A DNA stretch of 64,000 bases from Verrucomicrobiia bacterium (GTDB lineage Bacteria; Verrucomicrobiota; Verrucomicrobiia; Palsa-1439), in assembly GCA_041495285.1 (NCBI GenBank), contig JBGQCJ010000007.1, positions 534-64,533 on the forward strand, read 5' to 3'. The notes beneath the pieces were generated by a model. That model made no database searches. It had not been told where the DNA came from and saw nothing but the letters and a program-made list of their open reading frames with translations. A program made the translations under genes and the position numbers. Within the stretch, counting starts at the first letter, position 1, and every line of letters begins with the position of its first letter. Of the stretch, positions 1,878 to 64,000 are shown in pieces.

Positions 1878-2392
1878 TCAGGCGGCAGGTGCATCTCGTT
1901 CATTATCAAGTTTACAAAGGCGTTCGTACTCTTCGCGTGCTTCTGCAGCAATCTTAACGCGTCTGGTGGCGTGGAATGCCATGAAGCACACCAGTACGCC
2001 AATAACTAGCCAACAGAAGAATACTATCCTACGGACGAAATCGATGCCCAAAGGGTTTGAACTGGATTGCTGATCTAACTTACCCATGGTATCTGCCGCA
2101 ACGGGGAAACAAATGAAGATTATGAGCATCCCGATAAAGCACAAAATTCTGATCGTGCAACGTATCAACTCCGCGAGCAGGAGATCTGGATGCTTGGCGA
2201 GGAGGTGTATACGCGTTTGCTCAGCAGCCAGTCGCCTGTCACGACGCACCCGGAAAGTAGTTGAAGTTAGGGCGGCTAGAGAGGAGATACCATCTCGCAA
2301 ATACGCCGCGAGCAAGCTAGCGAGTATGCCAATGAAAACCGCAGTGAACCACCAGCCGGGATCCTTGAACAATCTGATAATCGATTCCATTT
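1878..2392 (-). CDS. small integral membrane protein (about 171 aa, 3-4 predicted TM segments, charged coiled C-terminus) in a conspicuously AT-rich islet
   Basis: ATG at 2392 (MESIIRLFKDPGWWFTAVFIGILASLLAAYL...) lies inside the 229-aa ORF 1878..2567. Hydrophobic stretches FTAVFIGILASLLAAYL, ILCFIGMLIIFICFPVA and IVFFCWLVIGVLVCFMAF are followed by a charged tail RRVKIAAEAREEYERLCKLDNERD. Local GC is far below the window average. The upstream part of the long ORF overlaps the GNAT gene and is rejected. Confidence 0.35.
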
Positions 2393-2406
2393 GAGCGAGG
2401 CGACAC

Positions 2407-3024: not shown

Positions 3025-3079
3025 TCGCCACCTCGCGCGCAGAGCGTAGCGAGGAGACAGTGTGATTGCAAGGGCGATG

Positions 3080-3156
3080 TTGTAGCCGCGAGCCTGCTCG
3101 CGGCAGAATGACAATGCCCCGTGAACAACGGGCCGCGAGCAGGCTCGCGGCTACAA
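3080..3156. repeat. perfect 25-bp inverted repeat (TTGTAGCCGCGAGCCTGCTCGCGGC / GCCGCGAGCAGGCTCGCGGCTACAA) with a 27-nt loop; GC-rich stem-loop between the stop of the giant GH gene and the GNAT gene
   Basis: Arms at 3080-3104 and 3132-3156 are exact reverse complements. No U-tract follows on either strand, so it is not a canonical intrinsic terminator. It resembles REP-type palindromes; compare the elements at 23054 and 48341, which also end in CTACAA. Confidence 0.8.
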
Positions 3157-3199
3157 TCGTCCCCAGCGTGATGGCGGTAACAAGATGCACCCGCCCGAA

Positions 3200-15493: not shown

Positions 15494-15495
15494 TT

Positions 15496-18400
15496 TTATG
15501 GGTTCACGCACCTGATCTTGTAGAACCGTTGCGTCCCGGCTGTGTTGTCGGTATGGGACAGGGTGATTTCGCCGGTTTGCGCGGTTTTCTGGATGAGAGA
15601 TTGCCAACCGCCGCCGAGCGAGTCGCAGTACATCACATCATAAGTCTTCCCTGGAACAGATGCCCACGTGATGGTGAACCCGCCGGCGACGGCTGGTTGA
15701 ATCTTCTGAATGACGAAATCTTTCGACGGTTCAAGACGATCGTAGATGCCATTGCCGTCGTTGTCGGTAATGGCAGGGATTGACAGCATGAGAAACTCGT
15801 TGCTTTCGATGTTGCCGTTGCCGTTACCTGCCGGCGCCTGGGCGACTAACGCGCCGTTTGGTGGAGAGTTCGTTGTGTTGTAAGCGGCGGCACAGACGTA
15901 GATGTTCGAGGGCATCGATCCGAACGCTTGGGCGAGATTAATTGTGCCTTCCATATAGCCGGCGTTGGTGGGCGCTTTGGCGAATTGGTTGGATGCGGTC
16001 ACGGCTGAGCCATCGAGGTTCTGCCAGCCGACGTAACCGTTATTGCTCTCACCACTCAGGAATGGCTTGGGACCGCTCGCGGCCATCGTGCCGGCCTTCG
16101 ACCACGTCGGAAACGCCGGTGACATCGGCGAGAGTTGGTCGGTGACGACAATGAAGTGATCGTTCTTGGTGGTGTCTCCGGGATAAATACCGGGCGACCA
16201 AGTGGCGACGTAAAGCATCTGACCGCGCACGGCGGCGTAGATCGTCATGCCGGGATTGCTCTGCAGATAATTCGTCGAATCGACGCTGTTGCCGTCGATG
16301 ACGAACGGCGGACTGAAATTCGGCGGCGGGGGATTGAACGTCGTGGCGCACGCGGACGGGGATGATTCGGCGGAGCTGTCGATGCTGTTCGTGGCGATGA
16401 TGGTGTAGCAGAATTGTGTGCTGGCCGGCAGCCCGATGTCGGAGTACGTGGTGGCCGAGGTCGTCGCGATCTGCGAGCCGGCACGTTTGACGATGTAACC
16501 GGTCGCGCCGCTCGACGCCGTCCACGAGACATTGATCTGGTTTGTCGCCGCGCCGGTCGCCGTGACGTTTTGTGGAGTGCCCGGCGTCGTCGGCGAACCG
16601 CTGGGGCCAACGAAAACATGTTGAATGGGCGAGTTGTAGGTGTTACCGCGGCTGTCGGTGGCACTGACGTAGTAGTCGACGTAGCCGCCCGTCAAGCCGG
16701 TCACTTTCGAGTAGTAGTAGTCCGCGATGTATTGCGGCGTGGAGCTGATGGCGGGCGCGACGGAGCGCTGGGTCATCGCCTGGCGAATCCAGGGCCCGGT
16801 GTTCGGCCCATCGGCGTAAACCTTGAACTGGTCTTGTGTTGGAGCGTAGGAGCCGTTGGAGCGATAGAGGAGGCTGACGTTCGTGATACCGGAAGCGTCG
16901 TAGGCGTATGTCCAAACCCAGAAATCGTTGTTGGCCGGCACGGTGACGTGGTAGCTGTACTGCGCGCCGAAGTTCGTCGTGCCGGGATTCCACGGATGCC
17001 GCTGCGGGATGAACAACGTCGGCGGCGTGTTGTCGAGCGAGGGGTTGCCGGTAACGATGGAGTTCACATTGCGCACGGCGTTGGATTGCGAAACGACGCA
17101 GCGGGCGCACTCGTCGCCGCCGCATCCGAAATATACAAACCCGCTGTCGAGTCCGCCGAGGTAGTAGTGCCAGCCGAGTTCGACCGCGCTCGGTGTCTGG
17201 CTGAAACTTCCCGGATCGCGAATCTGATCAATGCGATTAGTGTAGCCGGTGAGCGTGTTCTGGATTTGCTGCGCGGTCTTGACGCGATTCTCGGTCGCGA
17301 GTTGAACGCGTATCACGTCGGCCTTGCTGCTGGTGCCGACGCTGGGGTCGACGACGTTGACGCTGTTGGAGGTGATGCTCGGCGGCCAGTGCCAGCCGGT
17401 AAACAATGGCGAGCCGAAGTCGCCTCCCGCTTGATTGTTTACCCAGCCACCGTCTTCGACGTGAACGACGTCGTTGGAGTTCGGCGGCCAGTCATTAATG
17501 AATTGCTCGACGGTGGTCGGTTCGTAGCCGGCGGAGTTGGCCTGACCGGCAATGCTGTTGACCTGACTCATGTAATAGGTGAAGCCGCCGCTGAACGCGT
17601 TGTCGCCATCGTGCGCGAGGTAGACGAGGGCGGGCTTGGCAGGATCATTGTGCGCGCTCAGCGTGCCGAGGCTACTGATGTTCCAGGATTGTTCGCTGTC
17701 GAGATAACCGAGCGCCTGTTCGCTGGGAACGAGCATCAACATCGAAGCGGCGCCTGTGGACGGATTCACATACCGGCCGTAGTGCAACTGGTAGGCGAAC
17801 GGCAACGCGGCGGCCGGTTGACAACCGAGATTGTTGACGGAGACGCGTTGGTAGTTGCCGGCGCCTTGCGCTGGATTGATCTGGTCAGCCTTGTTCGGCA
17901 CATCGCAGTTGTCGCCGCTGAACGAGACCGGGTAATCGGAACAGGAGCGGGTCAAGTGAGTGTTGCCGACGACCGACCATTCAATACCGGCTTGTTTCAG
18001 GATCGGAATCATCCGCTCGGTGAAACAGGTCTCGGAAGGAAAATAGCCGCGCGACACCGCTGGACTCGTCGTCCAGAAAATCTCCATCTGTCGGCGGTGA
18101 ATCAGCAACTCCATCAGCAGCGTCTCGTCACTAATCAACGGAGCAAGCGAGTGATGGTAGTTGAAGTTCACGAGATCCATCCGGGGCTGGCTGCCGCTGG
18201 TCGTCCAATTGCGGGCTTGGATGTTCGAGTTGTTCCAGCCCGCGTTGTAACAACCCGAGCCGCCGCAGACGTTATGGCCGACGAGGCTCTGAACATTTTC
18301 AATCAGCGCGCCTGAGTAGCTGACTTGCGCACCGGCGTTGACAAAGTTGGTGACTGTACTGACGGAATCTCGTGGCCGGTATTGATAGGCCGCGATGCGG

Positions 18401-18669
18401 TCGTCGACGGTGAAGATATTGAGGACGGTTTCCGGATTCGGGTGCGGCCGGCCGCCATTCTGCTGCTGGATGGTATCCCATGCGCTCTCGTAATGATCGG
18501 CTGCATGGCCGGACGCGGCCTGATCCGGCCAATAGACGGGCTGGTGCAGATGCCAGTGCCAGGTCACATGGACGCTGTTGTTTGCTGAGGCAGGAAGACT
18601 GAGGGCAAGGGCTGCGGCGGTGAAAAAGCCGCATGCAATGTGCTTGGTACCGCGCTTCATTTCATTCAC
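15496..18669 (-). CDS. secreted GH57-family glycoside hydrolase (1057 aa) with fibronectin-III domain and shared C-terminal domain
   Basis: Signal peptide MKRGTKHIACGFFTAAALALSLPASA. GH57 signature regions: HWHLHQP (region 1), NYHHSLAPLI (HPILPL-like), FPSETCF (WxPE nucleophile region), LAHDGDNAF (region 4). An FN3-like segment is present (PQNVTATGAATNQINVSWTASSGATGYIVKR...). The C-terminus ends ...GTQRFYKIRCVNP*. Confidence 0.85.
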   Translation of the reverse strand: MNEMKRGTKHIACGFFTAAALALSLPASANNSVHVTWHWHLHQPVYWPDQAASGHAADHYESAWDTIQQQNGGRPHPNPETVLNIFTVDDRIAAYQYRPRDSVSTVTNFVNAGAQVSYSGALIENVQSLVGHNVCGGSGCYNAGWNNSNIQARNWTTSGSQPRMDLVNFNYHHSLAPLISDETLLMELLIHRRQMEIFWTTSPAVSRGYFPSETCFTERMIPILKQAGIEWSVVGNTHLTRSCSDYPVSFSGDNCDVPNKADQINPAQGAGNYQRVSVNNLGCQPAAALPFAYQLHYGRYVNPSTGAASMLMLVPSEQALGYLDSEQSWNISSLGTLSAHNDPAKPALVYLAHDGDNAFSGGFTYYMSQVNSIAGQANSAGYEPTTVEQFINDWPPNSNDVVHVEDGGWVNNQAGGDFGSPLFTGWHWPPSITSNSVNVVDPSVGTSSKADVIRVQLATENRVKTAQQIQNTLTGYTNRIDQIRDPGSFSQTPSAVELGWHYYLGGLDSGFVYFGCGGDECARCVVSQSNAVRNVNSIVTGNPSLDNTPPTLFIPQRHPWNPGTTNFGAQYSYHVTVPANNDFWVWTYAYDASGITNVSLLYRSNGSYAPTQDQFKVYADGPNTGPWIRQAMTQRSVAPAISSTPQYIADYYYSKVTGLTGGYVDYYVSATDSRGNTYNSPIQHVFVGPSGSPTTPGTPQNVTATGAATNQINVSWTASSGATGYIVKRAGSQIATTSATTYSDIGLPASTQFCYTIIATNSIDSSAESSPSACATTFNPPPPNFSPPFVIDGNSVDSTNYLQSNPGMTIYAAVRGQMLYVATWSPGIYPGDTTKNDHFIVVTDQLSPMSPAFPTWSKAGTMAASGPKPFLSGESNNGYVGWQNLDGSAVTASNQFAKAPTNAGYMEGTINLAQAFGSMPSNIYVCAAAYNTTNSPPNGALVAQAPAGNGNGNIESNEFLMLSIPAITDNDGNGIYDRLEPSKDFVIQKIQPAVAGGFTITWASVPGKTYDVMYCDSLGGGWQSLIQKTAQTGEITLSHTDNTAGTQRFYKIRCVNP

Positions 18670-23030: not shown

Positions 23031-23053
23031 CGCCAGCCACATCCAAATTCTCC

Positions 23054-23115
23054 CGTAGGAGCGGCCTCCCGGCCGCGATCGGCCCGGCCCGGTCGCGGCG
23101 TGGACGCCGCTCCTA
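23054..23115. repeat. GC-rich imperfect palindromic element (GTAGGAGCGGC...GCCGCTCCTAC) immediately after the DUF1800 gene; a second copy sharing a 28-bp identical core lies at 48341
   Basis: CCGTAGGAGCGGCCTCCCGGCCGCGATC at 23052-23079 recurs exactly at 48339-48366. The outer arms GTAGGAGCGGC and GCCGCTCCTAC are reverse complements and end in CTACAA, like the 3080 hairpin. Confidence 0.75.
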
Positions 23116-23133
23116 CAACACCAGGACGAAGCC

Positions 23134-39571: not shown

Positions 39572-42500
39572 ATGAACTCAAGACCGATGATCTTCTGGAT
39601 TGGATTGATGACGGCTGTTCTCGTTGCGCCGATGGCGCAAGCGGTCACCAACTTTGTGACCACCACCGCCGACAGCGGGGCCGGCTCGTTGCGCGAGGCC
39701 ATCTCCAACGCGAACAGCACGGCAGCGCTGGACTTCATTCACTTCAACATTTCGGGTACCGGGCCGTTTACCATCACCCCGGCCACCGCGCTGCCGACCA
39801 TCACCAATTCGGTGGTCATTGACGGTTACACACAGTCCGGCGCGAGTCAGAACACGTTGACGAATGGCGACGACGCGGTTCTGAAAATTGTGGTGCTCGG
39901 AACGCTGAATACGGATACTACCAACACCACGATCCGCGGGCTGGCGATCAAACAGATTCGCTTGGGCAATGAAGGCCCGTTGGGCGGCCACGTCGTCGAA
40001 GGAAACTTCATCGGACTCGATGCCACGGGCACGAACGACCTGGACGGAGGCGTCTTATCGGTCAACACTCCCAATAATCGAATTGGCGGCACGACGCCGG
40101 CGGCGCGCAATATTATCTCGGGTCACGGCACCCCTGTCAGCACGGCCGTCGGCATTGAGATGGCGGGACCGTTCGCCACGAACAATCTGATTCAAGGCAA
40201 CTTCATCGGCACGGACCGAACGGGCACCCTCGCCATCCCCAACACAGATCGCACCATTGTGTGCAATTCGTTCACCAAGAACAACACGATTGGCGGCACG
40301 AACAGCGGCGCGCGCAATGTCATCTCCGGCAACTCCGATCGCGGGATCGTGCTGGACGGCACCAACAACGTCGCGCAGGGCAATTTCATCGGCGTCGACG
40401 TGACCGGCGTGAATCCCTTGGGCAATACTCGCAGCGGTGTCGAGATTACCGGCTCCAACAATGTCTGCGGCGGGTTGGCCGCTGGTGCGGGAAATATCAT
40501 TGCTTATAACGGGGTGGGCGGAACGTCCAGCAATGGCGTTGAAGTCCAAAGCGGAGTGAAGTTCTATGTCATCCTCTCCAATTCGATCTACGACAACGCG
40601 GGTCTGGGGATCGACTTGTTTCCGCAAGGAGTCGTCAACTTGGGGTTTCCGGTCATCACGTCGGCCAGCAACTTGGTTGCGGGTACCGTCATCAAGGGAA
40701 CGTACACGCCCAGCGTCACCTCCCGCATCGAATTTTTTTCCAATCCTGACTGCGATTCCTCGGGCTTTGGCGAAGGCAAGACGTTGGTGATCTCGACCAA
40801 CCTCCTCGCCGACGCCGGCGGCAATTTCACCGTCACGTTGCCGACGATTCCGCCCGGTCTGTTCATGACCGCGACCGGGGGCGGCACTTCAGAATTTTGC
40901 CAGTGTCGGATGGTCGTCTTTGCCGGCAAGACGAATAGTTGGACCAACAGCGTCAGTGGCAACTGGAACAATGGCACCAACTGGTCGCTAGGCGGTCCGC
41001 CGTACATTTTGCTGGAGCAAGTCTTGATCACCAATGCGGCCAGCAAGACCGTCACCAACGACGGTGCGTTCCCCAGCACCATGAGCATCAGCAATCTCAC
41101 GATCAGCGCCCCGGGTGGGGCGGTCAACACGTTGTTGGTCAACGCCGGCACCAATACGCCATTGCGCATCGTCAACGCCTGCATCATTTCCAACGGCGGC
41201 GCGCTCGTGGTGACAAATTCGATCTGGCAGGTGGACGGGTTCGGCAGTATCTCCAACATCATCAACGGCAGCGCCACCGTGTTGGCCGGTTCCCGTTTGG
41301 TCTCCACACCCACCTACGTCGGCAGCGCTGCCGGCGCCAGTGGCACGCTCACCATCGCGGGCGGCAGCAATAGCGTGTTCGGCACACTCAGCCTCGGCTC
41401 GATCGCCAACGGGACCGGCACTGTCTGGGTGACCGACGGGAAATTGTTCCCGCCGTTGCTGCGCGTTGGGCAGTTCGGTTTCGGCCAGATGATTACTTCC
41501 AATGGCCTCGTGCAAAGCGGGGGCACGGTTTCATTTATCGGTTCGCAACCCGGCTCGCGCGGTCAGGTCACGGTAGCCGGTGGCACGAATATTTTTCCGT
41601 CGCTGACCATCGGCGAAATGAGCGGCGCGACCGGCTCCGTGTTAGTGAGCGACGGGCTGCTGCAAGTCAACGGCGACGTCCTGCATAGCCGCGGCACCTT
41701 CACCGTCGCCGGGGGCAACGCGAATCTCTTGGGAGAGTTTGACAATCGTCCGAGCAACATCGTGTGGATCACCGGCGGGCAAATGGCGGTGACTAACGGC
41801 AACATGTTCCCTGGACAGATCGTGGTTAGCAATGGCACGTTGCTGGCACGCGACCTGTTTCTCGGTAACTCTGTCGGTATCGCCATTCTGAGGGTTGACG
41901 GCGGAGTCGTCGCGCTGCCGAAAAGTTTCAACGGTCTGATTGTCGGTAACGGTTCCATCACCGGCAGTGTATGGCAAACCGGCGGGCAGATCATTCTGAC
42001 CAACACGACCCTGTCCATCGGTGGCCTGTTCGGTTCCGCAGTCGGCACCGTGACCGGCTCCAACGGCACGTTGCTGGCCAGCAACGTGTTTGTCGCGGCC
42101 ATCTCGAGCGGGCGCGGCACGTTCAACATTGCCGGCAGCACCAATCACGTCTACGCCAACCTGATTCTCGGCGACGAGTCCTGCATCGGCACCGGCATCG
42201 TCAACATGACCAGCGGCCAGCTCTTCGTGACCAACGCTGCCGGCAATGCCACCCTCGACGTTCGCAGCGGCACGCTCGCTATCAGCGGTGGTCTGTTGCA
42301 AGCCGACAAGATTATCATCACCAATCCCTGCGCACACTTCGTCAACAGCGGCGGCGCAGTCATTTACAACACCGCCGTGTTGCCGCCGAACGGCGACGCC
42401 GATGGTGACGGCATTCCCAACGGTTACGAGATCAGCCACGGCCTGAACGCGCTTGATCCCGCAAACGCGAATCAGGACACTGACGGCGATGGTCTGACCG

Positions 42501-42796
42501 ATTTGCAGGAGTACCTCGCCGGCACCGACCCGACCAACAGCGCGTCTGCATTTCGGGTCACGTCGATCGTCCGAACGAACAGCAACATCCGCATCACGTG
42601 GTCAACGGCCGGTGGTCACACCAATCGCGTGCTGATTGCAACGCCAGTGCCCGGCGGCAGCTTCACGAATGAGTTCAGCAATCTTAGCTCCTTCATTATC
42701 CTCCCCGGCTCGGGCGATACCAGCACCAACTACACTCACATTGGCGGCGCGACCAACTCCCCGTCGAACTACTACCGGATCCGTTTGATTCCATAG
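39572..42796 (+). CDS. secreted adhesin-like protein (1074 aa): N-terminal right-handed parallel beta-helix, PATR-like beta-strand repeats, TSP3-like repeats and the shared C-terminal domain
   Basis: Signal peptide MNSRPMIFWIGLMTAVLVAPMAQA. The N-terminus VTNFVTTTADSGAGSLREAISNANSTAALDFIHFNISGTGPFTITPATALPTITNSVVIDGYTQ is the classic beta-helix CASH-type start. Repeated (GTLTIAGGxNxV / GxGQMxxSNGxV)-like units follow. DADGDGIPNGYE and DTDGDGLTDLQEYLAGTDP repeats are present. Ends ...TSTNYTHIGGATNSPSNYYRIRLIP*. Confidence 0.85.
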   Translation: MNSRPMIFWIGLMTAVLVAPMAQAVTNFVTTTADSGAGSLREAISNANSTAALDFIHFNISGTGPFTITPATALPTITNSVVIDGYTQSGASQNTLTNGDDAVLKIVVLGTLNTDTTNTTIRGLAIKQIRLGNEGPLGGHVVEGNFIGLDATGTNDLDGGVLSVNTPNNRIGGTTPAARNIISGHGTPVSTAVGIEMAGPFATNNLIQGNFIGTDRTGTLAIPNTDRTIVCNSFTKNNTIGGTNSGARNVISGNSDRGIVLDGTNNVAQGNFIGVDVTGVNPLGNTRSGVEITGSNNVCGGLAAGAGNIIAYNGVGGTSSNGVEVQSGVKFYVILSNSIYDNAGLGIDLFPQGVVNLGFPVITSASNLVAGTVIKGTYTPSVTSRIEFFSNPDCDSSGFGEGKTLVISTNLLADAGGNFTVTLPTIPPGLFMTATGGGTSEFCQCRMVVFAGKTNSWTNSVSGNWNNGTNWSLGGPPYILLEQVLITNAASKTVTNDGAFPSTMSISNLTISAPGGAVNTLLVNAGTNTPLRIVNACIISNGGALVVTNSIWQVDGFGSISNIINGSATVLAGSRLVSTPTYVGSAAGASGTLTIAGGSNSVFGTLSLGSIANGTGTVWVTDGKLFPPLLRVGQFGFGQMITSNGLVQSGGTVSFIGSQPGSRGQVTVAGGTNIFPSLTIGEMSGATGSVLVSDGLLQVNGDVLHSRGTFTVAGGNANLLGEFDNRPSNIVWITGGQMAVTNGNMFPGQIVVSNGTLLARDLFLGNSVGIAILRVDGGVVALPKSFNGLIVGNGSITGSVWQTGGQIILTNTTLSIGGLFGSAVGTVTGSNGTLLASNVFVAAISSGRGTFNIAGSTNHVYANLILGDESCIGTGIVNMTSGQLFVTNAAGNATLDVRSGTLAISGGLLQADKIIITNPCAHFVNSGGAVIYNTAVLPPNGDADGDGIPNGYEISHGLNALDPANANQDTDGDGLTDLQEYLAGTDPTNSASAFRVTSIVRTNSNIRITWSTAGGHTNRVLIATPVPGGSFTNEFSNLSSFIILPGSGDTSTNYTHIGGATNSPSNYYRIRLIP

Positions 42797-42806
42797 GGAA
42801 CTGACA

Positions 42807-45125
42807 ATGAAGACATACCACATGATTGCAGCGGCAATCTTACTGGGCGCGATTCATCTGGACGAAGTCGAGGCGCAGAACAATAGTTGGACGAACATCA
42901 ACGCCGGCAAGTGGGAGACGAACGGCAACTGGTCGCTCGGCGTCGCGCCGGCGAGCACGCAATCCGGTACGTTCATCACGAATGCCTTCAGCAAGACGGT
43001 GACGATTGATTCAATCACGACCAACTTCCCCGGCACGATGACCATCAGCAATCTGACGGTGTCGGCGCCGTCGGTGCCCACCTCGTTCAACAGGCTGTCT
43101 CTGGATAACTCCGGCCTTGCGACGCCGCTGCGCATTCTCAATTTTCTCAAGGTGGACAGCGCGGGCACGTTGGTGGTGGGCACCAACTCGGTCCTGCAAG
43201 TGGACAATCCGACGTTCACCGGCTTTGTGAGCATTGATGGCGGCGGTTTTGTGATCGTCGTGGACGGCGGCACGCTCGCGGCCACCAATCAGACGACGTC
43301 CCTCGGTGGCCTCACCACGGGCGATATCCTTGTGAACAACGGCAACCTGAGGACCTTGAATCTTTCGATGGGCAACTTTCCCGGCGCAGTAGGCACATTG
43401 AGACTGCAAGCCGGTTTGGTCGAAGTGAAGTCCGTCTTGTCGCTCGGAGCCTCCGGAAGTTCGACCGCGGCGGTGTGGGTGACCGGCGGACAGCTCGTGG
43501 CGACCAACGCCACTACAACGATCGGGAATAGCAGTTCGGGCCGGTTGACCGTGTCGAACGGCACCGTGAATGCCGGAACTGTTACGGTGGCGCAAACGCC
43601 CGGCACAGCCGGGACGTTGACGGTGGCCGGCGGCACGTTCACGGCCGAGCGGCTCGTGGCGACGAACAGCAGCGCCACGATTCAGTTTCCCGCAGGCACG
43701 ATGACGCTGCGCGGCGCGGAGATCGGCAACAGTCTGGCGTTTGAGATTGGCGGAGCCGGGCAGACGGCGGTATTGAACCTTGTCGCCGGTACGAACCGCT
43801 TTGCCTTCAGCCTCTATGTCGGATCCTCGGCGAATGCCACCGGCACGTTGTGGATGACGGGCGGTCAATTGGTCGTCACCAACGCCATCACTTCCATCGG
43901 CGAGTCCGGTGTTGGACAGATGACGCTTTCTAACGGCATCTGGCTGGCAAATGGAGTCGTCGTTGGGAGAAATGCAGGTTCACAGGGGACGCTGACGATT
44001 GCGGGAGGTACGAATACCGTCATCAACGGTGGGGTGAGTGTCGGCCTCGGTTCGAATGCGGTCGGCGCGGTCTGGATTGTCGGCAACCAGGCGCGACTGG
44101 CGACAGTTACCACAAACGTTTCCAGCTCCATTTCACTCGGGGGCAACGACGGCACCGGGCAACTGAGCATTTCAAACGGCAGTGTCGAGACGTTGAGCTT
44201 GCTCATCGGGAGCGGCCTTCGGTCGCGCGGCACCGTAACGGTCGCGGGCGGTGAGTTGATCGTGCACGGCGCTTTGCCTGTTGGCCACCAACAAACCTCT
44301 ACCGGCACTGTTTGGATCACCAGCGGACAGCTCATCGTCACCAACGATTCCACTTTCGTTGGTAACCTTGGCAAAGGGCAAATGACCGTCTCCAACGGCA
44401 CGTGGCGGGCAACCGACGTGACTGTCGGCGGCGCGTCAGGCTCGCAAGGCACACTGGCCATCGCCGGCGGCATCAGCAGTGTGTACTCGAACCTAACGGT
44501 CGGTAATTTCGCCTGCAGCGCGACCGGCATCGTCAACGTCACCGCCGGCCAACTTCGCGTGACGAACAACGCCGCGAATGCCGTGCTCGAGGTGCGCAGC
44601 GGCACGTTGACCCAAAGCGGCGGCACGCTGGACGTTGACCGGCTCATCATCACGAACGACTGTGGCCGCTTCGTGCATACCGGCGGAACGCTGATCACCG
44701 GACTGATTACTCTCAGCCCGTTTGGTGATGCGGATGGCGATGGAATACCGAATGACTGGGAACTCGCGGCCGGGCTTGATCCATTCAATCCGAATGATGC
44801 CGGCTTGGACGAGGACGGCGATGGATTGACGAATCTGCAAGAGTACTTCACCGACACCGACCCGCATGATGCGACCAAGTACCTGCACATCACCTCGATT
44901 GTTCGCACCAACAACGATATTCGTATCACGTGGCCGACGGAAGAGTTCTATGGCCTCGGCATATTTTACCGGGTGCTATCGGGGACAAATCTGCTGACTG
45001 GTGTCACTAACAATTTGAGTCCAAATATCTTGGGCCCATTTGGCAGCTCGACCAATTACCTCGACGTCGGCGGCGCTACGAATTCCCCTCGTCGGTTCTA
45101 TCGTGTCCTCGGCAACATTGACTAG
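42807..45125 (+). CDS. secreted paralog (772 aa) with PATR-like beta-strand repeats, TSP3-like repeats and the shared C-terminal domain
   Basis: Signal peptide MKTYHMIAAAILLGAIHLDEVEA. Tandem ~40-aa units are present (TGTLWMTGGQLVVTNAITSIGESGVGQMTLSNGIWLANGVVVGRNAGSQGTLTIAGGTNTV...). DADGDGIPNDWE and DEDGDGLTNLQEYFTDTDP repeats follow. Ends ...SSTNYLDVGGATNSPRRFYRVLGNID*. It starts 11 nt after the previous gene. Confidence 0.85.
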   Translation: MKTYHMIAAAILLGAIHLDEVEAQNNSWTNINAGKWETNGNWSLGVAPASTQSGTFITNAFSKTVTIDSITTNFPGTMTISNLTVSAPSVPTSFNRLSLDNSGLATPLRILNFLKVDSAGTLVVGTNSVLQVDNPTFTGFVSIDGGGFVIVVDGGTLAATNQTTSLGGLTTGDILVNNGNLRTLNLSMGNFPGAVGTLRLQAGLVEVKSVLSLGASGSSTAAVWVTGGQLVATNATTTIGNSSSGRLTVSNGTVNAGTVTVAQTPGTAGTLTVAGGTFTAERLVATNSSATIQFPAGTMTLRGAEIGNSLAFEIGGAGQTAVLNLVAGTNRFAFSLYVGSSANATGTLWMTGGQLVVTNAITSIGESGVGQMTLSNGIWLANGVVVGRNAGSQGTLTIAGGTNTVINGGVSVGLGSNAVGAVWIVGNQARLATVTTNVSSSISLGGNDGTGQLSISNGSVETLSLLIGSGLRSRGTVTVAGGELIVHGALPVGHQQTSTGTVWITSGQLIVTNDSTFVGNLGKGQMTVSNGTWRATDVTVGGASGSQGTLAIAGGISSVYSNLTVGNFACSATGIVNVTAGQLRVTNNAANAVLEVRSGTLTQSGGTLDVDRLIITNDCGRFVHTGGTLITGLITLSPFGDADGDGIPNDWELAAGLDPFNPNDAGLDEDGDGLTNLQEYFTDTDPHDATKYLHITSIVRTNNDIRITWPTEEFYGLGIFYRVLSGTNLLTGVTNNLSPNILGPFGSSTNYLDVGGATNSPRRFYRVLGNID

Positions 45126-48100
45126 GTGAGAAAGGAAACTATGAAAAATATTTCGTATCGGCTCTTGTTGGTTGGAATGCTACTCTTTGGCAGCAACGTC
45201 GAAGGTGTGCTGACGACGAACAGTTGGTTTCTCTTCGGCGGGAAGTGGGAAGATGGCACAAAGTGGTCGGCGGGCTCCCCGTCCCTCTTAAATGCTGTAA
45301 ACACTATCACCAACGATTTGTCGGCCATCACCGTCACCATCGACACCACCACGGTGACTCAGCACGTGATGGCCCTTACCAGCCTGACCGTCAGCAACCT
45401 CTTTCTCGGGCGCGGCTCGGTCATTACGCATACGCTGTTCATGAATAACGCCAACAATACCCCCGGCAACATCGGCCTGACCATCCTGAGCAACTTCACT
45501 ATCAACGCCACCGGCATCCTCTCGATCACCAACTCCGACTTGCGGGTCACGAATCCGACCGGCGGGTTATTCATCAACGGCACCGCGTTGCACAACTTCG
45601 GAACGATCACCTGCACCAATCTGTCCGTTGGCCGAACCGGCGTGGGCACGATGACTGTCTCCAACGGCACATTGATCACTCGCAACCTGAATGTGGCCGA
45701 GCTTTCCGGCTCGCAAGGCACGTTCAACATCGCAGGCGGGTCGGTCACGTCTCGCAATATGCTCGTGGCGCTTTCGGGCCTGACCGGCACGGTGTGGATG
45801 ACCGGCGGCCAACTCACGGTCTCTAACGAATCCACAGCTTTGGGCGACCCCGGCGTCGGCCAAATGACGGTTTCCAACGGCACATGGGCGGCGAGCATCG
45901 TCTCGGTCCGGCAAGGCACACTGACCATCGCCGGTGGGACTCACAAGTTTTATAGCCTGGCCATTGCTTCAGGCGCCAGCACACTCACCGCAGCGGTGTG
46001 GATGGTTGGTGGCAACGTCGCGATCACCAACACGACAACGGCTTTCCCCGGTTTCACCAATGGTACCGCTGTGGGCTTGAATGGTTTCGGACAAATGACG
46101 ATGTCCAACGGCACATTCTTGGGGCGCGACATGTACGTCGGCACCAACACCGGCTCGGTCGGCACATTCACGATGGCCGGCGGCACCAACACGCTGACGT
46201 CGCTTCTCAGCGTGGGCGGACTGCCCGGCGCGACTGGCGCGGTCTGGATAACCGGCGGGCGGTTCGCTGTCACCAACAACAACACGCAGATCGGGGTCAG
46301 TGGTGTGGGGCAGATTACGCTCTCCAACGGCACGTGGCTGGCGCGGGATGTGTACGTCGGCGTCAATGCCAGCTCGCGTGGCACACTCACCTATGCCGGC
46401 GGCACCAACATCCTGTCGTCGGTGCTCCAACTCGGCATCAACAGCGGCGTGACCGGCACATTATGGATGACCGATGGACGACTTGTCGTGACCAACGTTG
46501 CATCCAGCGTTATCATCGGCTCCAGTGGCGTTGGTCAAATGGCTGTGTCCAATGGCGACTGGTTGGCCCGTGAAGTTTTCATCGCGACCAACGCCGGCTC
46601 GGCCGGCACGTTGAACATCGCCGGCGGCAGCGGCCTCGTGACTTCCAACATGATCCTCGGCAACTTTGCCTGCTCTTCGACCCCCATCGTCAACATGACC
46701 GCCGGCAGCTTGATTGTGTCCAACCCCAACCCGGTCATTGCCGCGAAACTGGAAGTGCGCAGCGGCACGTTCACTCACAGCGGCGGAGATTTGGTCCTGC
46801 GCAATCTCGTGATCACGAACGCTTGCGCCCGCTTTCTGCACACCGGTGGCACGCTAAAGATCACGGGAGTACTTATCCTCGATCCCAATATGGACGCCGA
46901 TGGCGACGGGATCCCCAACAACTACGAACTGTTCAGCCCCGTTCTGTTCCAATTGAACCCGAACGATGCCGGCGAAGATCCCGACGGCGACGGGTTCACG
47001 AACTTGGAGGAATACCTGAACGGCACCGATCCGACCGTAAACGATTTCCACATCACCGCCATCGCGCGGGAAGGAAACGATATTCGGATCACGTGGGCGA
47101 CGGTCGGCGGCACGACGAATCGCGTGCTCGTGTCCACGGGCGCGGCGGGCGGATCATTCACGAACAACTTCACCAACTTGAGTCCTCGCATCTTCGTTGC
47201 CGGCACCGGTGCAACCAGCACCAATTACCTCGACAGCGGCGGCGCGACCAACACGCCGGCGCGCTACTACCGCGTGCGGCGGAGTCTCGAGCCAGGCGGG
47301 GCGCGTTTCCTCTTCGACGCCGGCCACGCCCAGAGCGCCGGCAACGCGGATTGGGTCGTCGATGCCGACGTTCGCAACATCGTCTGGAACAGCTCGGGCA
47401 CGTTCACGACCGGTGGCAGCGACTCCAATGCGCAGCGCATCCCGACGCCGCCGGCCAGCGGAATCATTTCCAGCACGCCGGAGACGTATTGGGACGGCGG
47501 AATCTCCGCGTGGGCGGTGGACCTCGTCAAGCGCGGCCATTCCGTCGAGACACTGCCGGCAGGCGTGCAGTTCACCTACGGCACGGCCAACGCGCAAGAC
47601 TTGAGCAACAACTACGATGTCGTGGTCGTGGACGAGCCGAACATTCTGTTCACGCTCGTCGAGAAACAGGCGCTGCTCAGCTTCGTTACAAACGGCGGCA
47701 GTCTGTTCATGATTTCCGACCACACCAGCTCGGATCGAAATAGCGATGGCGTAGACTCGCCTGAAATCTGGATGGATTTTCTTACGAACAATCTGGTCGC
47801 GAACAATCCGTTCGGCATCGTGTTTCCGTCCTCGAGCGCGAGCGGGACAAACACGTTCAATCACAATATCGTCGGTGACCCGATCCTGAACGGCCCGGTC
47901 GGGCTGGCGACGAACACCGCCTATTTCGCCGGCAACCGATTCCAGATTGACCACACGAAGAATCCAACCGTGATCAGCCACATGTGGTTCGGCACCGCCG
48001 TCGATTCCAACAACCTGTGCGCGGTGGCCTCGTTGCGCTACGGCAATGGCCGCGTCGTGGTGGTCGGCGACAGTTCGCCGATCGAAGACGGTACGGGCGA

Positions 48101-48203
48101 CCCGGGCGATGGACTGTTCAACGGCTACACCGGCGACCTCGGCGAGACCAATCGCATTTGGATACTCAACGCCAGCGAATGGCTTGCCGCGCCCTTTCAG
48201 TGA
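45126..48203 (+). CDS. secreted paralog (1025 aa): PATR-like repeats, TSP3-like repeats and a complete copy of the shared CTD, followed by an extra ~300-aa C-terminal domain (class-I glutamine-amidotransferase/ThuA-like by inference)
   Basis: Signal peptide (MKNISYRLLLVGMLLFGSNVEG). The CTD is internal here (...ATSTNYLDSGGATNTPARYYRVRRSLEP at about aa 700) and is followed by ARFLFDAGHAQSAGNADWVVDAD...YDVVVVDEPNILFTLVEKQALLSFVTNGGSLFMISDHTS.... It starts 1 nt after the previous stop. Confidence 0.8.
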   Translation: MRKETMKNISYRLLLVGMLLFGSNVEGVLTTNSWFLFGGKWEDGTKWSAGSPSLLNAVNTITNDLSAITVTIDTTTVTQHVMALTSLTVSNLFLGRGSVITHTLFMNNANNTPGNIGLTILSNFTINATGILSITNSDLRVTNPTGGLFINGTALHNFGTITCTNLSVGRTGVGTMTVSNGTLITRNLNVAELSGSQGTFNIAGGSVTSRNMLVALSGLTGTVWMTGGQLTVSNESTALGDPGVGQMTVSNGTWAASIVSVRQGTLTIAGGTHKFYSLAIASGASTLTAAVWMVGGNVAITNTTTAFPGFTNGTAVGLNGFGQMTMSNGTFLGRDMYVGTNTGSVGTFTMAGGTNTLTSLLSVGGLPGATGAVWITGGRFAVTNNNTQIGVSGVGQITLSNGTWLARDVYVGVNASSRGTLTYAGGTNILSSVLQLGINSGVTGTLWMTDGRLVVTNVASSVIIGSSGVGQMAVSNGDWLAREVFIATNAGSAGTLNIAGGSGLVTSNMILGNFACSSTPIVNMTAGSLIVSNPNPVIAAKLEVRSGTFTHSGGDLVLRNLVITNACARFLHTGGTLKITGVLILDPNMDADGDGIPNNYELFSPVLFQLNPNDAGEDPDGDGFTNLEEYLNGTDPTVNDFHITAIAREGNDIRITWATVGGTTNRVLVSTGAAGGSFTNNFTNLSPRIFVAGTGATSTNYLDSGGATNTPARYYRVRRSLEPGGARFLFDAGHAQSAGNADWVVDADVRNIVWNSSGTFTTGGSDSNAQRIPTPPASGIISSTPETYWDGGISAWAVDLVKRGHSVETLPAGVQFTYGTANAQDLSNNYDVVVVDEPNILFTLVEKQALLSFVTNGGSLFMISDHTSSDRNSDGVDSPEIWMDFLTNNLVANNPFGIVFPSSSASGTNTFNHNIVGDPILNGPVGLATNTAYFAGNRFQIDHTKNPTVISHMWFGTAVDSNNLCAVASLRYGNGRVVVVGDSSPIEDGTGDPGDGLFNGYTGDLGETNRIWILNASEWLAAPFQ

Positions 48204-48221
48204 GCACGGCCCGACAATTAG

Positions 48222-48344
48222 ACGACCAACTTCGCCACCATCTTCGCTGTCACCAACGTTACCGGCACTAGGACCAGCTACCTCGACGTCGGCGCCGCCA
48301 CGAATAGGCCGAGTTTCTATTATCGGGTGCGATTGGTTCCGTAG
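48222..48344 (+). pseudogene. orphan remnant of the shared C-terminal domain (last ~40 codons, no upstream gene body)
   Basis: An open frame of only 41 codons translates to TTNFATIFAVTNVTGTRTSYLDVGAATNRPSFYYRVRLVP*. This reproduces the family tail (FTNxF..TN...TSTNYLDxGGATNxPxRYYRVRL) 19 nt after the stop of 45126..48203. Confidence 0.65.
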
Positions 48345-48405
48345 GAGCGGCCTCCCGGCCGCGATCCTCTGGGCCGGTCGCGACCGGGAGGTCGTTCCTA
48401 CAACC
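48341..48405. repeat. second copy of the GC-rich palindromic element (GTAGGAGCGGCCTCCCGGCCGCGATC...GTCGTTCCTACAA)
   Basis: The 28-bp core is identical to 23052-23079. Imperfect arms GTAGGAGCGGCCTCCCGGCCGCGA and TCGCGACCGGGAGGTCGTTCCTAC. It overlaps the stop codon of the CTD remnant. Confidence 0.7.
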
Positions 48406-48446
48406 GCGTCCGCCTCGTGCCGTAGTGATGAGGGCGCCACCGATAG

Positions 48447-48908
48447 GTGCGCTGTATCCTCTCCGTTATGCGCGGGTCTTCCGACCGCGCACAAGCTCCG
48501 GGTTGTAAGACCTCGCGTTCAACGCACACGTCGAGCACATGAGACCGTCGCCGAACATTGGAGGCGAGGAGGGGATGTTTGCGTTGACTTCTGCGCTTGA
48601 TGCATAGCACTACTATGTATCGTGTCTGCTCCGGCTCGCGTAAAGACTGAAGCAGCGCAATGCATCGCTATCCGACATATCAACACGGGCAACTGTCGGC
48701 TGAGGAGCGCCACGATCTCGAACACGACGGCCTCCTCCTCGCCCTCAAACACCTCTCCCAATTCGTACCCGCAGAGTAATTGTCTCGCAGGCTATAATTT
48801 TCTTGCATTCGGGGCCGCGTTCTGGTCAACTCCGCCATTCGGAGAAACGAAGGGGCTGGCGTCACGTTTGCGTTTCCTCCTCCGTATCCCTCCAGAGTCG
48901 CAGGGCAA
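48447..48908. repeat. dispersed duplicated block, copy 2 (rearranged: block B, isomerase-tail fragment, block X), upstream of the FG-GAP/CTD gene
   Basis: See copy 1 at 38647..38951. The order of sub-blocks differs between copies. The isomerase-tail fragment here (…LLLALKHLSQFVPAE*) has no gene body. Confidence 0.7.
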
Positions 48909-49545
48909 CGATGAAGACGAAGCTGATCGCGGTGGCTTCTTGGGCCGTGTTTCTCGTATCGGCCGGGTTGGAGTATGGGTTGGAGATCGACTTTCCTCTC
49001 ATGCCGCCGGTATGGTTGGTAATAGCAGTTTGTGCTTTGATAGGTGCCACCGCCCACGCCTCAATCAGTTCCACTAACCCTTCGCGCTTCATCATCAGCG
49101 CTGACGCGCTTGCGAAAAGCTGTGCATCGCCGATGCCGTTGAAAACAGCGCCCGCTGAAGCCGAGTTTGCAAGCCGAGTTAGACGAGACGCCGCTGTCGT
49201 GTGCGGCAAACGCGGCGGTGTCGTCTCTGCCGCAATCAGCGGGCCTACAAGACACGCAGATTTTGGGGCATTCGTTGTAGGTCGCGTGCCGAGTTTGACG
49301 AGACGCGATGATGCCGCTGGCTCATCGCAAACCTCCCGCGCCGTACGGCCGGTCATCTTTCTGGGCGCCGCGACAACACGAGGGCCTCCCTGCGCCGGTG
49401 ACCAGAGTCCGCGTCTGTTTGACGGCGCGCTGGACCCCCCGGCCCCGCACTTCTGCGCCGCCCCACCTTTCTCCGAGTTCCACCTTCGCGATTCATCGTC
49501 AGCACGCAACGTTACCCCTGCAGCCAATCCCGCAGCATCACTTGC

Positions 49546-51303
49546 ATGGAGGATCAGATGAGACTTCTCATTCGCAGTACACTGACCATTGCTTTAATTG
49601 CGCTGGCGATGAGCCTACCGGGCCTAACGGCCAACGCCCAACCCGCCCAGCAAGCCTATGTCAAAGCCTCCCACACCGCAATGGGCGGGGGGCGCCTGTT
49701 CGGTTACTCGGTGGCGGTATCGAGCGACACGATGGTGATCGGGGCGGAATCGGAGAACAGCAACGCCACCGGCGTGAACGGCGACCAGGCCAACAACAAC
49801 GCACTCGGCTCCGGCGCGGCTTACGTATTCGTGCGCAGTGGAACCAACTGGAGCCAACAGGCCTATCTCAAGGCCTCCAACACCGATGCGGGTGACCACT
49901 TCGGCTGGTCGGTGGCGATGTCAGACGACACGATGGTGATCGGCGCGCCTTATGAGTCCAGCAACGCCACCGGCGTGAACGGCGTCCAGACCAACAACGG
50001 CGCTGCTTTCTTCTCTGGCGCGGTCTACGTCTTCGTGCGGAGCGGTACGAACTGGAGCCAGCAGGCCTATCTGAAGGCCTCCAACACCGATGCGAATGAC
50101 CACTTCGGCTACTCGGTGGCGGTGTCGGGCGACACGGTAGTCGTCGGGGCGGACCAGGAGGCGAGCAACGCCACCGGCGTGAACGGCGTCCAGACCAACA
50201 ACAGCGCCGGATTCTCCGGTGCGGCCTACGTCTTCGTGCGCAGTGGAACGAACTGGAGCCAACAGGCCTATCTCAAGGCCTCCAACACCGGGCTCAGTGA
50301 CCAGTTCGGCTGGTCGGTGGCGGTGTCAGGCGACACGGTAGTCGTCGGGGCGTACACGGAGTCGAGCAACGCCACCGGTGTGAATGGCGTCCAGACCAAC
50401 AATCTCGCGAGCAACTCCGGCGCGGCCTACGTGTTCGTGCGCGGCGGAACCAACTGGAGCCAGCAGGCCTATCTCAAGGCCTCTAACACCGAGTCGGACG
50501 ACAGGTTCGGTACTTCGGTGGCGGTGTCAGGCGACACGGTGGTGGTGGGCGCGTTTCAGGAGGACAGCAACGCCACCGGCGTGAACGGCGTCCAGACCAA
50601 CAACAGCCTTACCAACCCCGGCGCAGCGTATGTGTTCGTGAGGAGCGGGACGAGCTGGAGCCAGCAGGCGTATCTCAAGGCCTCCAACACCGATGGGGGT
50701 GACTGGTTCGGCATTTCCGTGGCGGTGTCAGGTGACACGGTGGTCGTTGGGGCGTACGGTGAGGACAGCAACGCCACCGGCGTGAACGGCGTCCAGACCA
50801 ACAACGTTGCAAACGGCTCCGGCTCCGGCGCGGCCTATGTGTTCGTGCGGAGCGGTACGAGCTGGAGCCAGCAGGCGTATCTCAAGGCCTCCAACACCGG
50901 TGTGGGTGACGAGTTCGGCTACTCGGTGGCGGTGTCAGGCGACACGGTGGTGGTCGGGGCCATAGATGAGGCCAGCAACGCCACCGGCGTGAACGGCAAC
51001 CAGAGCGACAACAGCGCAACCAGCTCCGGCGCGGCCTACGTCTTCACCGGCTTAGTCACCTCAACACCTCTCAGCGTCAGCAGCCTTGCGCGCGTTGGCA
51101 ACTGCATTGGCGTAACGTGGAACACCGCACCCGGCATGACCAATGAGTTGCAGGCCACCGCGTGTGGTGGGGGTTACAGCACAAACAGCTTCACCGCCAT
51201 CTTCAGCGTCACAAATGCCGTTGGTTCGGTGACCAACTATCTCGACTGTGGCTGCGTAACCAATTCCCCCTCGCGCTTCTATCGGGTTCGGCTGGTGCAG
51301 TAA
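49546..51303 (+). CDS. secreted 7-bladed FG-GAP-like beta-propeller protein with the shared C-terminal domain (585 aa)
   Basis: Signal peptide MRLLIRSTLTIALIALAMSLPGLTANA. Seven ~67-aa repeats of the form QQAYLKASNTxxxDxFGxSVAVSGDTVVVGAxxExSNATGVNGVQTNNSxxxSGAAYVFVRSGTNWS. Ends ...VTNYLDCGCVTNSPSRFYRVRLVQ*. Confidence 0.8.
   Translation: MEDQMRLLIRSTLTIALIALAMSLPGLTANAQPAQQAYVKASHTAMGGGRLFGYSVAVSSDTMVIGAESENSNATGVNGDQANNNALGSGAAYVFVRSGTNWSQQAYLKASNTDAGDHFGWSVAMSDDTMVIGAPYESSNATGVNGVQTNNGAAFFSGAVYVFVRSGTNWSQQAYLKASNTDANDHFGYSVAVSGDTVVVGADQEASNATGVNGVQTNNSAGFSGAAYVFVRSGTNWSQQAYLKASNTGLSDQFGWSVAVSGDTVVVGAYTESSNATGVNGVQTNNLASNSGAAYVFVRGGTNWSQQAYLKASNTESDDRFGTSVAVSGDTVVVGAFQEDSNATGVNGVQTNNSLTNPGAAYVFVRSGTSWSQQAYLKASNTDGGDWFGISVAVSGDTVVVGAYGEDSNATGVNGVQTNNVANGSGSGAAYVFVRSGTSWSQQAYLKASNTGVGDEFGYSVAVSGDTVVVGAIDEASNATGVNGNQSDNSATSSGAAYVFTGLVTSTPLSVSSLARVGNCIGVTWNTAPGMTNELQATACGGGYSTNSFTAIFSVTNAVGSVTNYLDCGCVTNSPSRFYRVRLVQ
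49648..51070 (+). repeat. seven near-identical tandem DNA repeats of ~201-204 bp encoding the FG-GAP-like blades
   Basis: GGCCTATCTCAAGGCCTCCAACACCG... and GGTGTCAGGCGACACGGTGGT... recur with >85% nucleotide identity at ~200-bp spacing. Confidence 0.8.
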
Positions 51304-63787: not shown

Positions 63788-64000
63788 CTATGGGCAGTTC
63801 GGCGTCCCGGATGACAACCGGATGCGGTAGTACCGCGACGGTACGTTGGTCGCACCGCCGACATCCACCCAGTTGGTGGTGACGGCGCCGCTGCCGGACA
63901 CGAACAACGTGGCGAGACTAATGTAGTTGTTTGTGTAGTTGCCGCTGATGATCGGGTTCGCCAGTTGCACGACGTTGGTCGAACCGCCGACGGTCAGCCA
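63788..64000 (-). CDS. C-terminal end of a further CTD-family protein; the gene continues beyond the window
   Basis: The minus-strand frame is open to the window edge. The tail ...VTTNWVDVGGATNVPSRYYRIRLSSGTPNCP* carries the family signature (TN..DVGGATN.P.RYYRIRL). Confidence 0.7.
   Translation of the reverse strand, partial: WLTVGGSTNVVQLANPIISGNYTNNYISLATLFVSGSGAVTTNWVDVGGATNVPSRYYRIRLSSGTPNCP

Follow-up and report, generated by a model that had tools for sequence, protein, structure and literature searches.

The 64,000-nt stretch of DNA analysed here (the window), from an uncultured Verrucomicrobiia bacterium, carries on its plus strand a tandem array of three genes, which we call g1, g2 and g3, for beta-helix proteins that share a domain of about 80 residues usually found at the protein C-terminus (C-terminal domain, CTD). 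Reading the window sequence and its translations confirmed the three open reading frames (ORFs), at 39572-42796 (g1, 1074 aa), 42807-45125 (g2, 772 aa) and 45126-48203 (g3), all of them where an earlier sequence-only reading of this DNA had put them. The spacings given there hold for g1 and g2 (10 nt), and the 0 nt between g2 and g3 holds only with GTG 45126 as the g3 start, the public gene calls placing it at ATG 45141 (1020 aa). The start of g1 overlaps the stop of an upstream ORF (ATGA), and its product comprises a signal peptide, an extra N-terminal region, beta-helix repeats, a TSP3 repeat and a terminal CTD (42551-42793); g2 encodes a signal peptide, beta-helix repeats with a period of ~73 aa, a TSP3 repeat and a terminal CTD (44883-45122) with the atypical tail FYRVLGNID, both CTDs being located with the CTD profile. 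The body of g3 (45126..47045, aa 1-640) has a signal peptide, a beta-helix and TSP3 repeats (the latter at ~46890-47045), and is followed by an internal CTD and an appended DUF4350-like domain that runs to the g3 stop. Beyond an 18-nt spacer (48204..48221) that ends in an in-frame TAG (48219-48221) lies stub 1 (48222..48344, plus strand), an orphan CTD end, TTNFATIFAVTNVTGTRTSYLDVGAATNRPSFYYRVRLVP*, which consists of the last 40 codons plus TAG in the frame of g3; the 41-codon orphan frame noted earlier is thus present, though as a frame it has no start codon.

The paralogy of the three genes proposed by the sequence-only reading proved highly significant by BLASTP, with 42% identity over 665 aa for g2/g3 (E 1e-113), 40% for g1/g2 (E 2e-83) and 39% for g1/g3 (E 2e-94). 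Judged by eye, a Sec signal peptide is plausible at the N-terminus of each protein. The repeat unit measures ~73 aa rather than the ~40 aa first suggested, and is made of three motifs of ~25 aa (GxGQMxVSNG, GTLTIAGG and VWxTGGQ) that each recur every 66-82 aa. Nor did profiles bear out the label of PATR repeats, as Pfam PATR (PF12951) is absent at E<=0.01 and TIGR04393 (T5SS/PEP-CTERM-associated repeat) matches g2 only, at 21.3 against a cutoff of 23. The sole Pfam matches in g1-g3 are TSP3_bac, plus a sub-threshold DUF4350 match in g3. TSP3 (PF18884), a calcium-binding repeat, passes its gathering threshold of 25 in g1 (25.8) and is sub-threshold in g2 (22.9) and g3 (19.3), both of which show the same DxDxDG motifs as g1. 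The array proteins resemble TIGR04393/PATR proteins in their G/T/N/S-rich beta-helix bodies with GTLTIAGG- and VSNG-kind motifs, but they have neither an autotransporter barrel nor a C-terminal PEP-CTERM anchor, and unlike PEP-CTERM and other tripartite sorting signals, which combine a signature motif, a transmembrane helix and a basic tail, their C-termini end in a beta-strand (YYRVRLVP) without a hydrophobic helix. The extra N-terminal region of g1, a GSLREAI-type beta-helix of ~430 aa that is absent from g2 and g3, shows a GSLREAI motif and NxIxGN-type coils over residues ~25-450 (window 39644-40930) and has no Pfam or NCBIfam match.

Tandem genes on one strand with spacers of 0-10 nt could be read as the product of a recent local amplification, with the stub as its by-product. 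We consider this very improbable: protein identity is only 39-42%, the DNA repeats are merely 60-80% identical, four-fold sites are saturated (divergence of g3 from g1 or g2, 0.48-0.50), and other species carry comparable arrays without closer one-to-one orthology. All paralog pairs, whether from one genome or from two, are 33-44% identical, such that one-to-one orthology of g1-g3 with the arrays of the related loci L004 and L006 could not be resolved (the related loci come from metagenome-assembled genomes, MAGs, labelled Verrucomicrobiia). Because of the ~40% protein identity and the saturated four-fold sites, we interpret the duplication behind g1-g3 as ancient; the local amplification suggested by the sequence-only reading is an old one. 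The tandem array at this locus is old and recombining, and it encodes Sec-exported beta-helix proteins, each with a TSP3 repeat and a beta-sandwich CTD of ~80 aa at its end.

The CTD of g3 is complete yet internal (47046..47282, aa 641-719; 119.5 bits against the CTD profile), and the roughly 300 residues noted earlier behind it number 306, namely an 8-aa linker (RSLEPGGA, 47283..47306) and a last 298 residues that form the DUF4350-like domain (47307..48203), a mature domain of predicted GATase1/GIFT fold ending EWLAAPFQ-TGA. Searching with g3 residues 720-1025 returned 1,722 homologues. The nearest stand-alone relatives, P0003 (410 aa, 72% identity) and P0004 (397 aa, 69-70%), consist of a signal peptide (cleaved between VANVEA and ARFLFDADH), the domain (to EWLAAPF), a linker and the same CTD, ending PSRFYRVRLVP. 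Hundreds of ~405-aa Bacteroidota proteins, 50-54% identical, carry the same domain followed by the T9SS (type IX secretion system) type A sorting domain (PF18962), and elsewhere the tail is T9SS-like (WOR-3 and Hydrothermia), made of dockerin-like DxDGxGxVDGxDL repeats (Planctomycetota) or of TSP3 plus a CTD variant (another Verrucomicrobiota MAG); across phyla, then, the domain is constant and its tail variable. The g3 junction reads YYRVR-RSLEPGGA-RFLFDAGH, and the appended part begins at residue +1 of the mature stand-alone protein, i.e., at the signal-peptide cleavage site, while the paralog's tail end and stop, the intergenic spacer and the partner's signal peptide are gone. Gene g3 is a fusion of a beta-helix paralog with a neighbouring, normally stand-alone secreted DUF4350-like gene, which the sequence-only reading had missed as the key event in the third gene. 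Between the two neighbours a deletion took out the final codons of the CTD together with stop, spacer and signal peptide, and joined the paralog's complete CTD, via the 8-residue linker, to residue +1 of the mature DUF4350-like domain.

Since the source DNA is a metagenome assembly and stub 1 lies in the g3 frame, one might suspect an artefact, whether two genes misjoined or an error in sequencing or assembly that detached a normal terminal CTD from g3. However, two other public assemblies, a JGI metagenome contig (3300053058) and MAG GCA_041488115.1, encode the exact g2 protein, and where they overlap the window they differ from it by 4 and 9 single-nucleotide polymorphisms with 0 indels; from 48002 to the end of the compared region there are 0 mismatches or indels, and the stub region is identical in all three. 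Because the three assemblies agree across the stub region, the stop codons and the stub are not an assembly error, and the layout, for which the sequence-only reading had itself raised an assembly or indel error splitting a terminal CTD, holds. Such an artefact is made extremely unlikely as well by the two in-frame stops between g3 and the stub, the complete lack of the first ~40 CTD codons, the DUF4350 part being without signal-peptide coding sequence, and the occurrence of the same fusion junction in two loci from other samples (L003 and L106).

Considering the appended domain itself, g3 carries 34/34 invariant residues of the DUF4350-like family (62-sequence alignment), whose own invariant motifs are GNADWV.DAD, DEPN, SDH..SDRN.DG and GDSSP.DDGTGD. 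Pfam DUF4350 (PF14258, GATase1-like clan) matches g3 aa 792-985 with 27.2 bits (E 5.7e-6), short of its gathering threshold of 30.4. An AlphaFold model of the domain (pLDDT 86.5, pTM 0.90) matched OST48, the IFT52 N-terminal domain, STM3548, 3rht and 4e5v in Foldseek with probability 0.99-1.0 and TM 0.4-0.5, as well as the GH42 trimerisation domain, and the ThuA-like 4e5v ranked 50th among the matches (E 6e-4, TM 0.38); a PDB sequence search with the domain gave no match. From this model we assign the domain a class-I glutamine amidotransferase (GATase)-like, GIFT-type fold. The earlier guess of a class-I GATase/ThuA-like domain therefore survives at the level of fold, with ThuA itself belonging to the same superfamily only and ThuA (PF06283) having no Pfam match in g3. 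The predicted fold matches that of the known GIFT/class-I GATase-like domains (GldG, IFT52 N-terminal, OST48/Wbp1; DUF4350, ABC_transp_aux, ThuA), of which DUF4350, ABC_transp_aux and GldG gave weak matches below curated cutoffs, but unlike these GIFT relatives the appended-domain family is extracellular, with a sorting-type tail and its own invariant motifs. GIFT domains have been proposed to bind sugars (PMC7226087), and by analogy the DUF4350-like domain is possibly glycan-binding; we found no functional account of DUF4350 in the literature.

The same fusion architecture recurs in L003 (DUF4350 part 85% identical) and L106 (92%), with a linker of 8 aa in the window and L003 and of 7 aa in L106, and the fusion genes of all three lineages stop one codon past EWLA[AE]PF, at a TGA in the same position. 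Comparing the window with L003, the ratio of nonsynonymous to synonymous substitution rates (dN/dS) is 0.13 for the DUF4350 part (dS 0.72), 0.34 for the internal CTD, 0.29 for TSP3 and 0.44 for the beta-helix, and the 8-aa linker is unconstrained; against L106 it is 0.11 for DUF4350 and 0.28 for the internal CTD, and TSP3 stays at 0.26-0.29 across comparisons. By these ratios the fusion is maintained by purifying selection in all its parts, internal CTD included. With dN/dS of 0.28-0.34 the internal CTD is not decaying, and being under purifying selection it therefore keeps a function without a free C-terminus. The sequence-only reading had offered a dilemma, in which the third gene is either non-functional for sorting or the CTD works internally, and of its two horns the selection data point to a function retained in the internal position. 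Weighing against this reading, L003 and L106 are each represented by one short metagenomic contig; a metagenome scan for further fusion relatives gave none beyond the loci already found.

Divergence along the fusion gene is not uniform. Between the window and L106, four-fold divergence is 0.25 for DUF4350 and 0.30 for the CTD, against 0.60 for TSP3 and 0.54 for the beta-helix (pooled counts 34/61 versus 46/176, Fisher p = 4e-5, with L106 again the one short contig), and nucleotide identity rises from ~0.6 to ~0.8 near aa 625, at the TSP3/CTD boundary. The same step is seen between L106 and L003, and in all pairs of the three loci the beta-helix/TSP3 body lies at paralog-level synonymous divergence while the CTD-DUF4350 block is much closer. 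Because divergence steps at the TSP3/CTD boundary, we read the CTD-DUF4350 block as orthologous and the upstream body as paralog-like, which fits replacement of the body by recombination at that boundary; an alternative is that a raised synonymous rate in a hypervariable repeat region produces the step.

Relatives also connect the two fusion partners in other arrangements. In L004, L005 and L007 a row of genes begins with DUF4350-CTD, continues with a 205-aa gene and closes with three tandem beta-helix/TSP3/CTD genes (936, 717 and 684 aa). L006, in another Verrucomicrobiia MAG, holds at 2049-4508 a fusion in the reverse order, signal peptide-DUF4350::beta-helix-TSP3-CTD (819 aa), in which DUF4350 is without its CTD and the paralog without its signal peptide, with another paralog after it. 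One subclade thus shows two fusion orders and one adjacency of DUF4350 and beta-helix genes, and because there are fusions in both orders and adjacency in relatives, we argue for a Rosetta-stone link, i.e., that the DUF4350-like protein and the beta-helix proteins are probably functionally tied. As in other Rosetta-stone fusions, one genome joins what another keeps as two adjacent genes, and in this case both orders occur; unlike the usual ones, g3 leaves a terminal domain internal and drops the partner's own copy. Tempering this, the distant homologues P0007 and Chryseobacterium have no beta-helix neighbours around them, which limits the link to one Verrucomicrobiia subclade. Functionally, the fusion would mount a putatively glycan-binding DUF4350-like domain on a beta-helix stalk that bears its own CTD. 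The window keeps a synteny marker for this arrangement, a 216-aa plus-strand ORF (48911..49561) that shares homology with the 205-aa gene over its N-terminal 53 aa (E 3e-12). Gene callers disagree over 48862-49561, one record having a 164-aa minus-strand ORF and another the 216-aa ORF on the plus strand; relatives conserve no more of the latter than these 53 residues, and its end overlaps the start of a downstream FG-GAP gene by 16 nt.

The region directly downstream of g3 holds remnants of CTD genes. Stub 1, separated from g3 by TGA 48201 and TAG 48219, matches positions 663-703 of the 703-position paralog-family profile (E 2e-13), is the sole paralog-like sequence that this profile finds in 48204-49560, scores 66.6 bits, equal to the 6.6th percentile of functional tails, and has 2 of 7 near-invariant positions changed. 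Overlapping its stop is a GC-rich palindromic element similar to repetitive extragenic palindromes (48339..48404, stem ~25 bp), and the RNA fold of 48330-48440 reaches -64.7 kcal/mol (z -4.8). Directly 3' of it lies stub 2 (48405..48425, plus strand), RVRLVP plus TAG, which was overlooked in the sequence-only reading. Five of its six sense codons differ from those of stub 1, all synonymously, and because the differences are all synonymous stub 2 comes from a different, once functional gene and not from a target-site duplication. Comparable remnants occur in relatives: in L007 (at 11865-11897), and likewise in L004 and L005, a 9-codon stub, PFYRVRLVP*, precedes the first beta-helix paralog by 18 nt, and in L003 the fusion gene is followed after 45 nt, at ~1603-1930, by an orphan paralog head that belongs to a fourth member (a signal peptide and ~105 residues, then unrelated sequence), seen on a single metagenomic contig. 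The stub in L007 suggests that 3' stubs recur where array genes are deleted, and we infer that stub 1, the hairpin and stub 2 are scars of deletions of one or two further CTD genes; that the remnant is the footprint of a past rearrangement, as first proposed, is borne out by the near-intact stub and by the orphan paralog head at the equivalent place in L003. Like the orphan modules of CdiA-CT/Rhs systems, these are promoterless 3' gene fragments downstream of a large secreted beta-helix gene, but stub 1 is a conserved tail rather than a variable toxin tip, has 40 codons and no start codon, is followed by no immunity gene, and shows nothing that points to reuse by recombination.

Several side observations concern this region. 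A second copy of the palindromic element (~66 nt, CCGTAGGAGCGGCCTCCCGGCCGCGATC…TCCTACAAC) is found at 23053-23119. Both copies are intergenic, directly follow a stop codon and are predicted to fold into a hairpin of ~25 bp; no copy turned up in the related loci examined. An Rfam scan of 47900-49700 gave no match, and a promoter/terminator scan gave nothing useful. The PFYRVRLVP* stub lies within the annotated 205-aa gene, at its 3' end and in a different frame. A candidate paralog head at 48697-48810 was rejected, as it was seen only in uncorrected tblastn, was absent with default statistics, and scored -3.9 with the family hidden Markov model.

Where stub 1 came from is best weighed by combining similarity, position and timing. 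Aligning the remnant to CTDs, as the sequence-only reading had proposed for identifying its donor, did not name one: stub 1 is 70% identical both to the tail of the stand-alone DUF4350 protein P0003 and to the L004 beta-helix tail, identity drops to 57.5% with the tail of the FG-GAP protein and to 50% with the internal CTD of g3, and the best local match of stub 1 (31/40 residues) is to consensus-like tails and hence not informative. Because the DUF4350 and beta-helix tails tie at 70%, similarity does not decide the donor. Timing says more. In simulations of neutral decay, the share of runs that kept the stub 1 score and acquired no stop was 47% at K=0.05, 10% at 0.1, 0.2% at 0.2 and 0% at 0.36, and the lineages with the common TGA differ by 0.25-0.37 at four-fold sites. 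Since this TGA is common to three diverged lineages, the sequence 3' of it would have been untranslated for at least ~0.13-0.25 substitutions per site, and the near-intact state of stub 1 thus fits the recent loss of a separately translated CTD gene. We therefore lean, by a modest degree, towards a recently deleted downstream CTD gene as the origin of stub 1, in preference to DUF4350's own tail; the donor would be a downstream array member, lost less than ~0.1 substitutions per site ago.

Several points pull the other way. The timing takes the common TGA to be the ancestral state and stub 1 to have escaped refreshing by gene conversion; stub 1 stands in the g3 frame, only 18 nt past the g3 stop, and between the DUF4350-like domain and the 205-aa-gene homologue, which is the place of DUF4350's own CTD, as in L004 and L007 that CTD is flanked by the domain on one side and, on the other, by the 205-aa gene whose homologue the window keeps downstream; and its closest tails include that of stand-alone DUF4350. 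Together with the fact that proteins with internal plus terminal CTDs are common in the family (20/149), these points speak for stub 1 as a vestige of DUF4350's own terminal CTD, from an ancestor of the form beta-helix-CTD::DUF4350-CTD, which we judge possible but clearly the less probable origin. On that course, which we hold equally tentatively, a frameshift or deletion created the TGA and cut off the terminal CTD, whose first half was then lost. Such a course has to accommodate a same-codon TGA in lineages as far apart as these, neutral decay so long that <=0.2% of runs end with an equally intact tail, an equal match of stub 1 to a beta-helix tail, and the orphan paralog head 45 nt after the fusion gene of L003. 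It also gains no trace from the DNA beyond the stop codon, which shows no homology between the window, L106 and L003 and is unalignable among the three. A candidate 5' vestige of the DUF4350 CTD start in the spacer after g3, GTGAGCACGG (10 nt), was rejected as non-significant (173 of 2000 shuffles score equally, p ~0.09).

The CTD itself extends far beyond this array. A profile built from 8 CTDs retrieved 2,799 representative clusters at E<=1e-3 and 1,357 at E<=1e-10 (clusters at 50% identity). Among the 149 best representatives, 142 have the CTD at the C-terminus, 122 of them there only and 20 with internal copies as well, many of which resemble A-CTD::B-CTD fusions, and 7 have internal copies only, the g3 orthologue P0148 among them. 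Conserved motifs are W17, TNYLD and YYRVRLVP-COOH, with the extreme end strongly conserved. In the 64-kb window 8 genes end in the CTD, on different gene bodies, and they include g1, g2, a plus-strand FG-GAP repeat protein (49546..51303) with its terminal CTD (51073-51300) on an unrelated gene body, a minus-strand gene running off the window end (63788-64000; CTD plus a 7-residue extension, ending YYRIRLSSGTPNCP*) and three giant minus-strand ORFs (3200-11956, 12059-15607 and 15496-18669; 2918, 1182 and 1057 aa); further matches in the window are the g3 internal copy and stub 1. The giant ORFs have alpha-amylase, GH57, fn3 and TSP3 matches and end in divergent CTD copies (YYKVKVL, YYRVGIVP, FYKIRCV), and at 49699-51011 the FG-GAP gene contains six repeat units in tandem, each 201-207 nt long and with 65-84% DNA identity, that correspond to its FG-GAP blades. 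The CTD is modelled as a beta-sandwich of 6-7 strands (pLDDT 88.8). The 8 CTDs had no Pfam match even at E<=10 and no NCBIfam match at E<=1, and we found no account of this CTD in the literature. The sequence-only reading had taken the stub as direct evidence that the CTD is exchanged as a module, which a deletion stub does not show; modularity is supported instead by other data drawn from sequence comparison, namely the 8 gene bodies and the divergence step at the TSP3/CTD boundary.

We then compared this domain with the T9SS type A CTD (PF18962 Por_Secre_tail / TIGR04183), likewise a beta-sandwich of ~80 aa that ends many unrelated secreted proteins, and found that in Bacteroidota and WOR-3 orthologues of the DUF4350-like protein the T9SS CTD occupies the exact place that this CTD has in the Verrucomicrobiia orthologues. 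The T9SS models match the Bacteroidota orthologues and have no Pfam or NCBIfam match to this CTD, and profile-profile alignment with T9SS tails (hhalign) gave a probability of 0.3% (E 0.21, 11 columns aligned). T9SS tails carry PNP and G.Y where this CTD carries W17, TNYLD and YYRVRLVP-COOH, and unlike the T9SS CTD it usually follows TSP3 repeats and tolerates an internal position under selection, being terminal in 142/149, in g1, g2 and the FG-GAP gene but internal in g3, whereas the T9SS CTD is the extreme C-terminus. In position the CTD is therefore analogous to the T9SS CTD (PMC4804311, PMC8545088), with no detectable homology. That it sits at the terminus, attaches promiscuously and is swapped for another tail in orthologues would point to a sorting or anchoring role, and we infer a surface-retention/sorting module that does not strictly need a free C-terminus. 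Two results count against such a role: a fold search of the CTD in PDB gave generic, non-significant beta-sandwich matches only, and the link to sorting and anchoring is drawn from sequence, without a machinery gene. Tentatively, then, TSP3 plus CTD might be the cargo tag of an undescribed Verrucomicrobiota outer-membrane sorting/anchoring pathway, analogous to the T9SS CTD and not homologous to it.

The CTD could instead be a true secretion signal that needs its C-terminal position, g3 then being mis-sorted, periplasmic or in the course of being lost. The terminal placement and conserved extreme end, the place shared with the T9SS CTD in orthologues, and the nature of T9SS CTDs as C-terminal beta-sandwich export signals (PMC4804311, PMC8545088) agree with this. 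Yet a fusion without a terminal CTD has been kept in three lineages, with the low dN/dS given above for both the internal CTD and the DUF4350-like domain, the CTD resembles T9SS tails neither by the Por_Secre_tail model nor by profile-profile comparison, and T9SS has been reported only in Bacteroidetes (PMC5445135) while the host is a Verrucomicrobiia bacterium, so we regard a strictly C-terminal signal as rather unlikely. Taken as a whole, the combination of an old array, a g3 fusion, deletion scars and a CTD module is the explanation that we consider reasonably probable.

In terms of biology, the locus is an ordinary case of secreted repeat-protein genes arising, dying and fusing within their family, by known evolutionary processes, and the main addition is the gene fusion and the identity of its partner, with the CTD family as the more interesting lead. 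Fusions in both orders tie an uncharacterised, secreted DUF4350-like protein of predicted GIFT fold, possibly glycan-binding, to beta-helix proteins. The CTD, being abundant, nearly always terminal, uncurated and a replacement for the T9SS CTD in orthologous proteins, is a candidate sorting or anchoring tag of Verrucomicrobiota, and the conserved fusion without a terminal CTD argues against this tag being merely a disposable terminal signal. If the cargo-tag reading is true, g3-type fusions would be natural experiments in which the tag works, or has a second, binding role, in an internal position.

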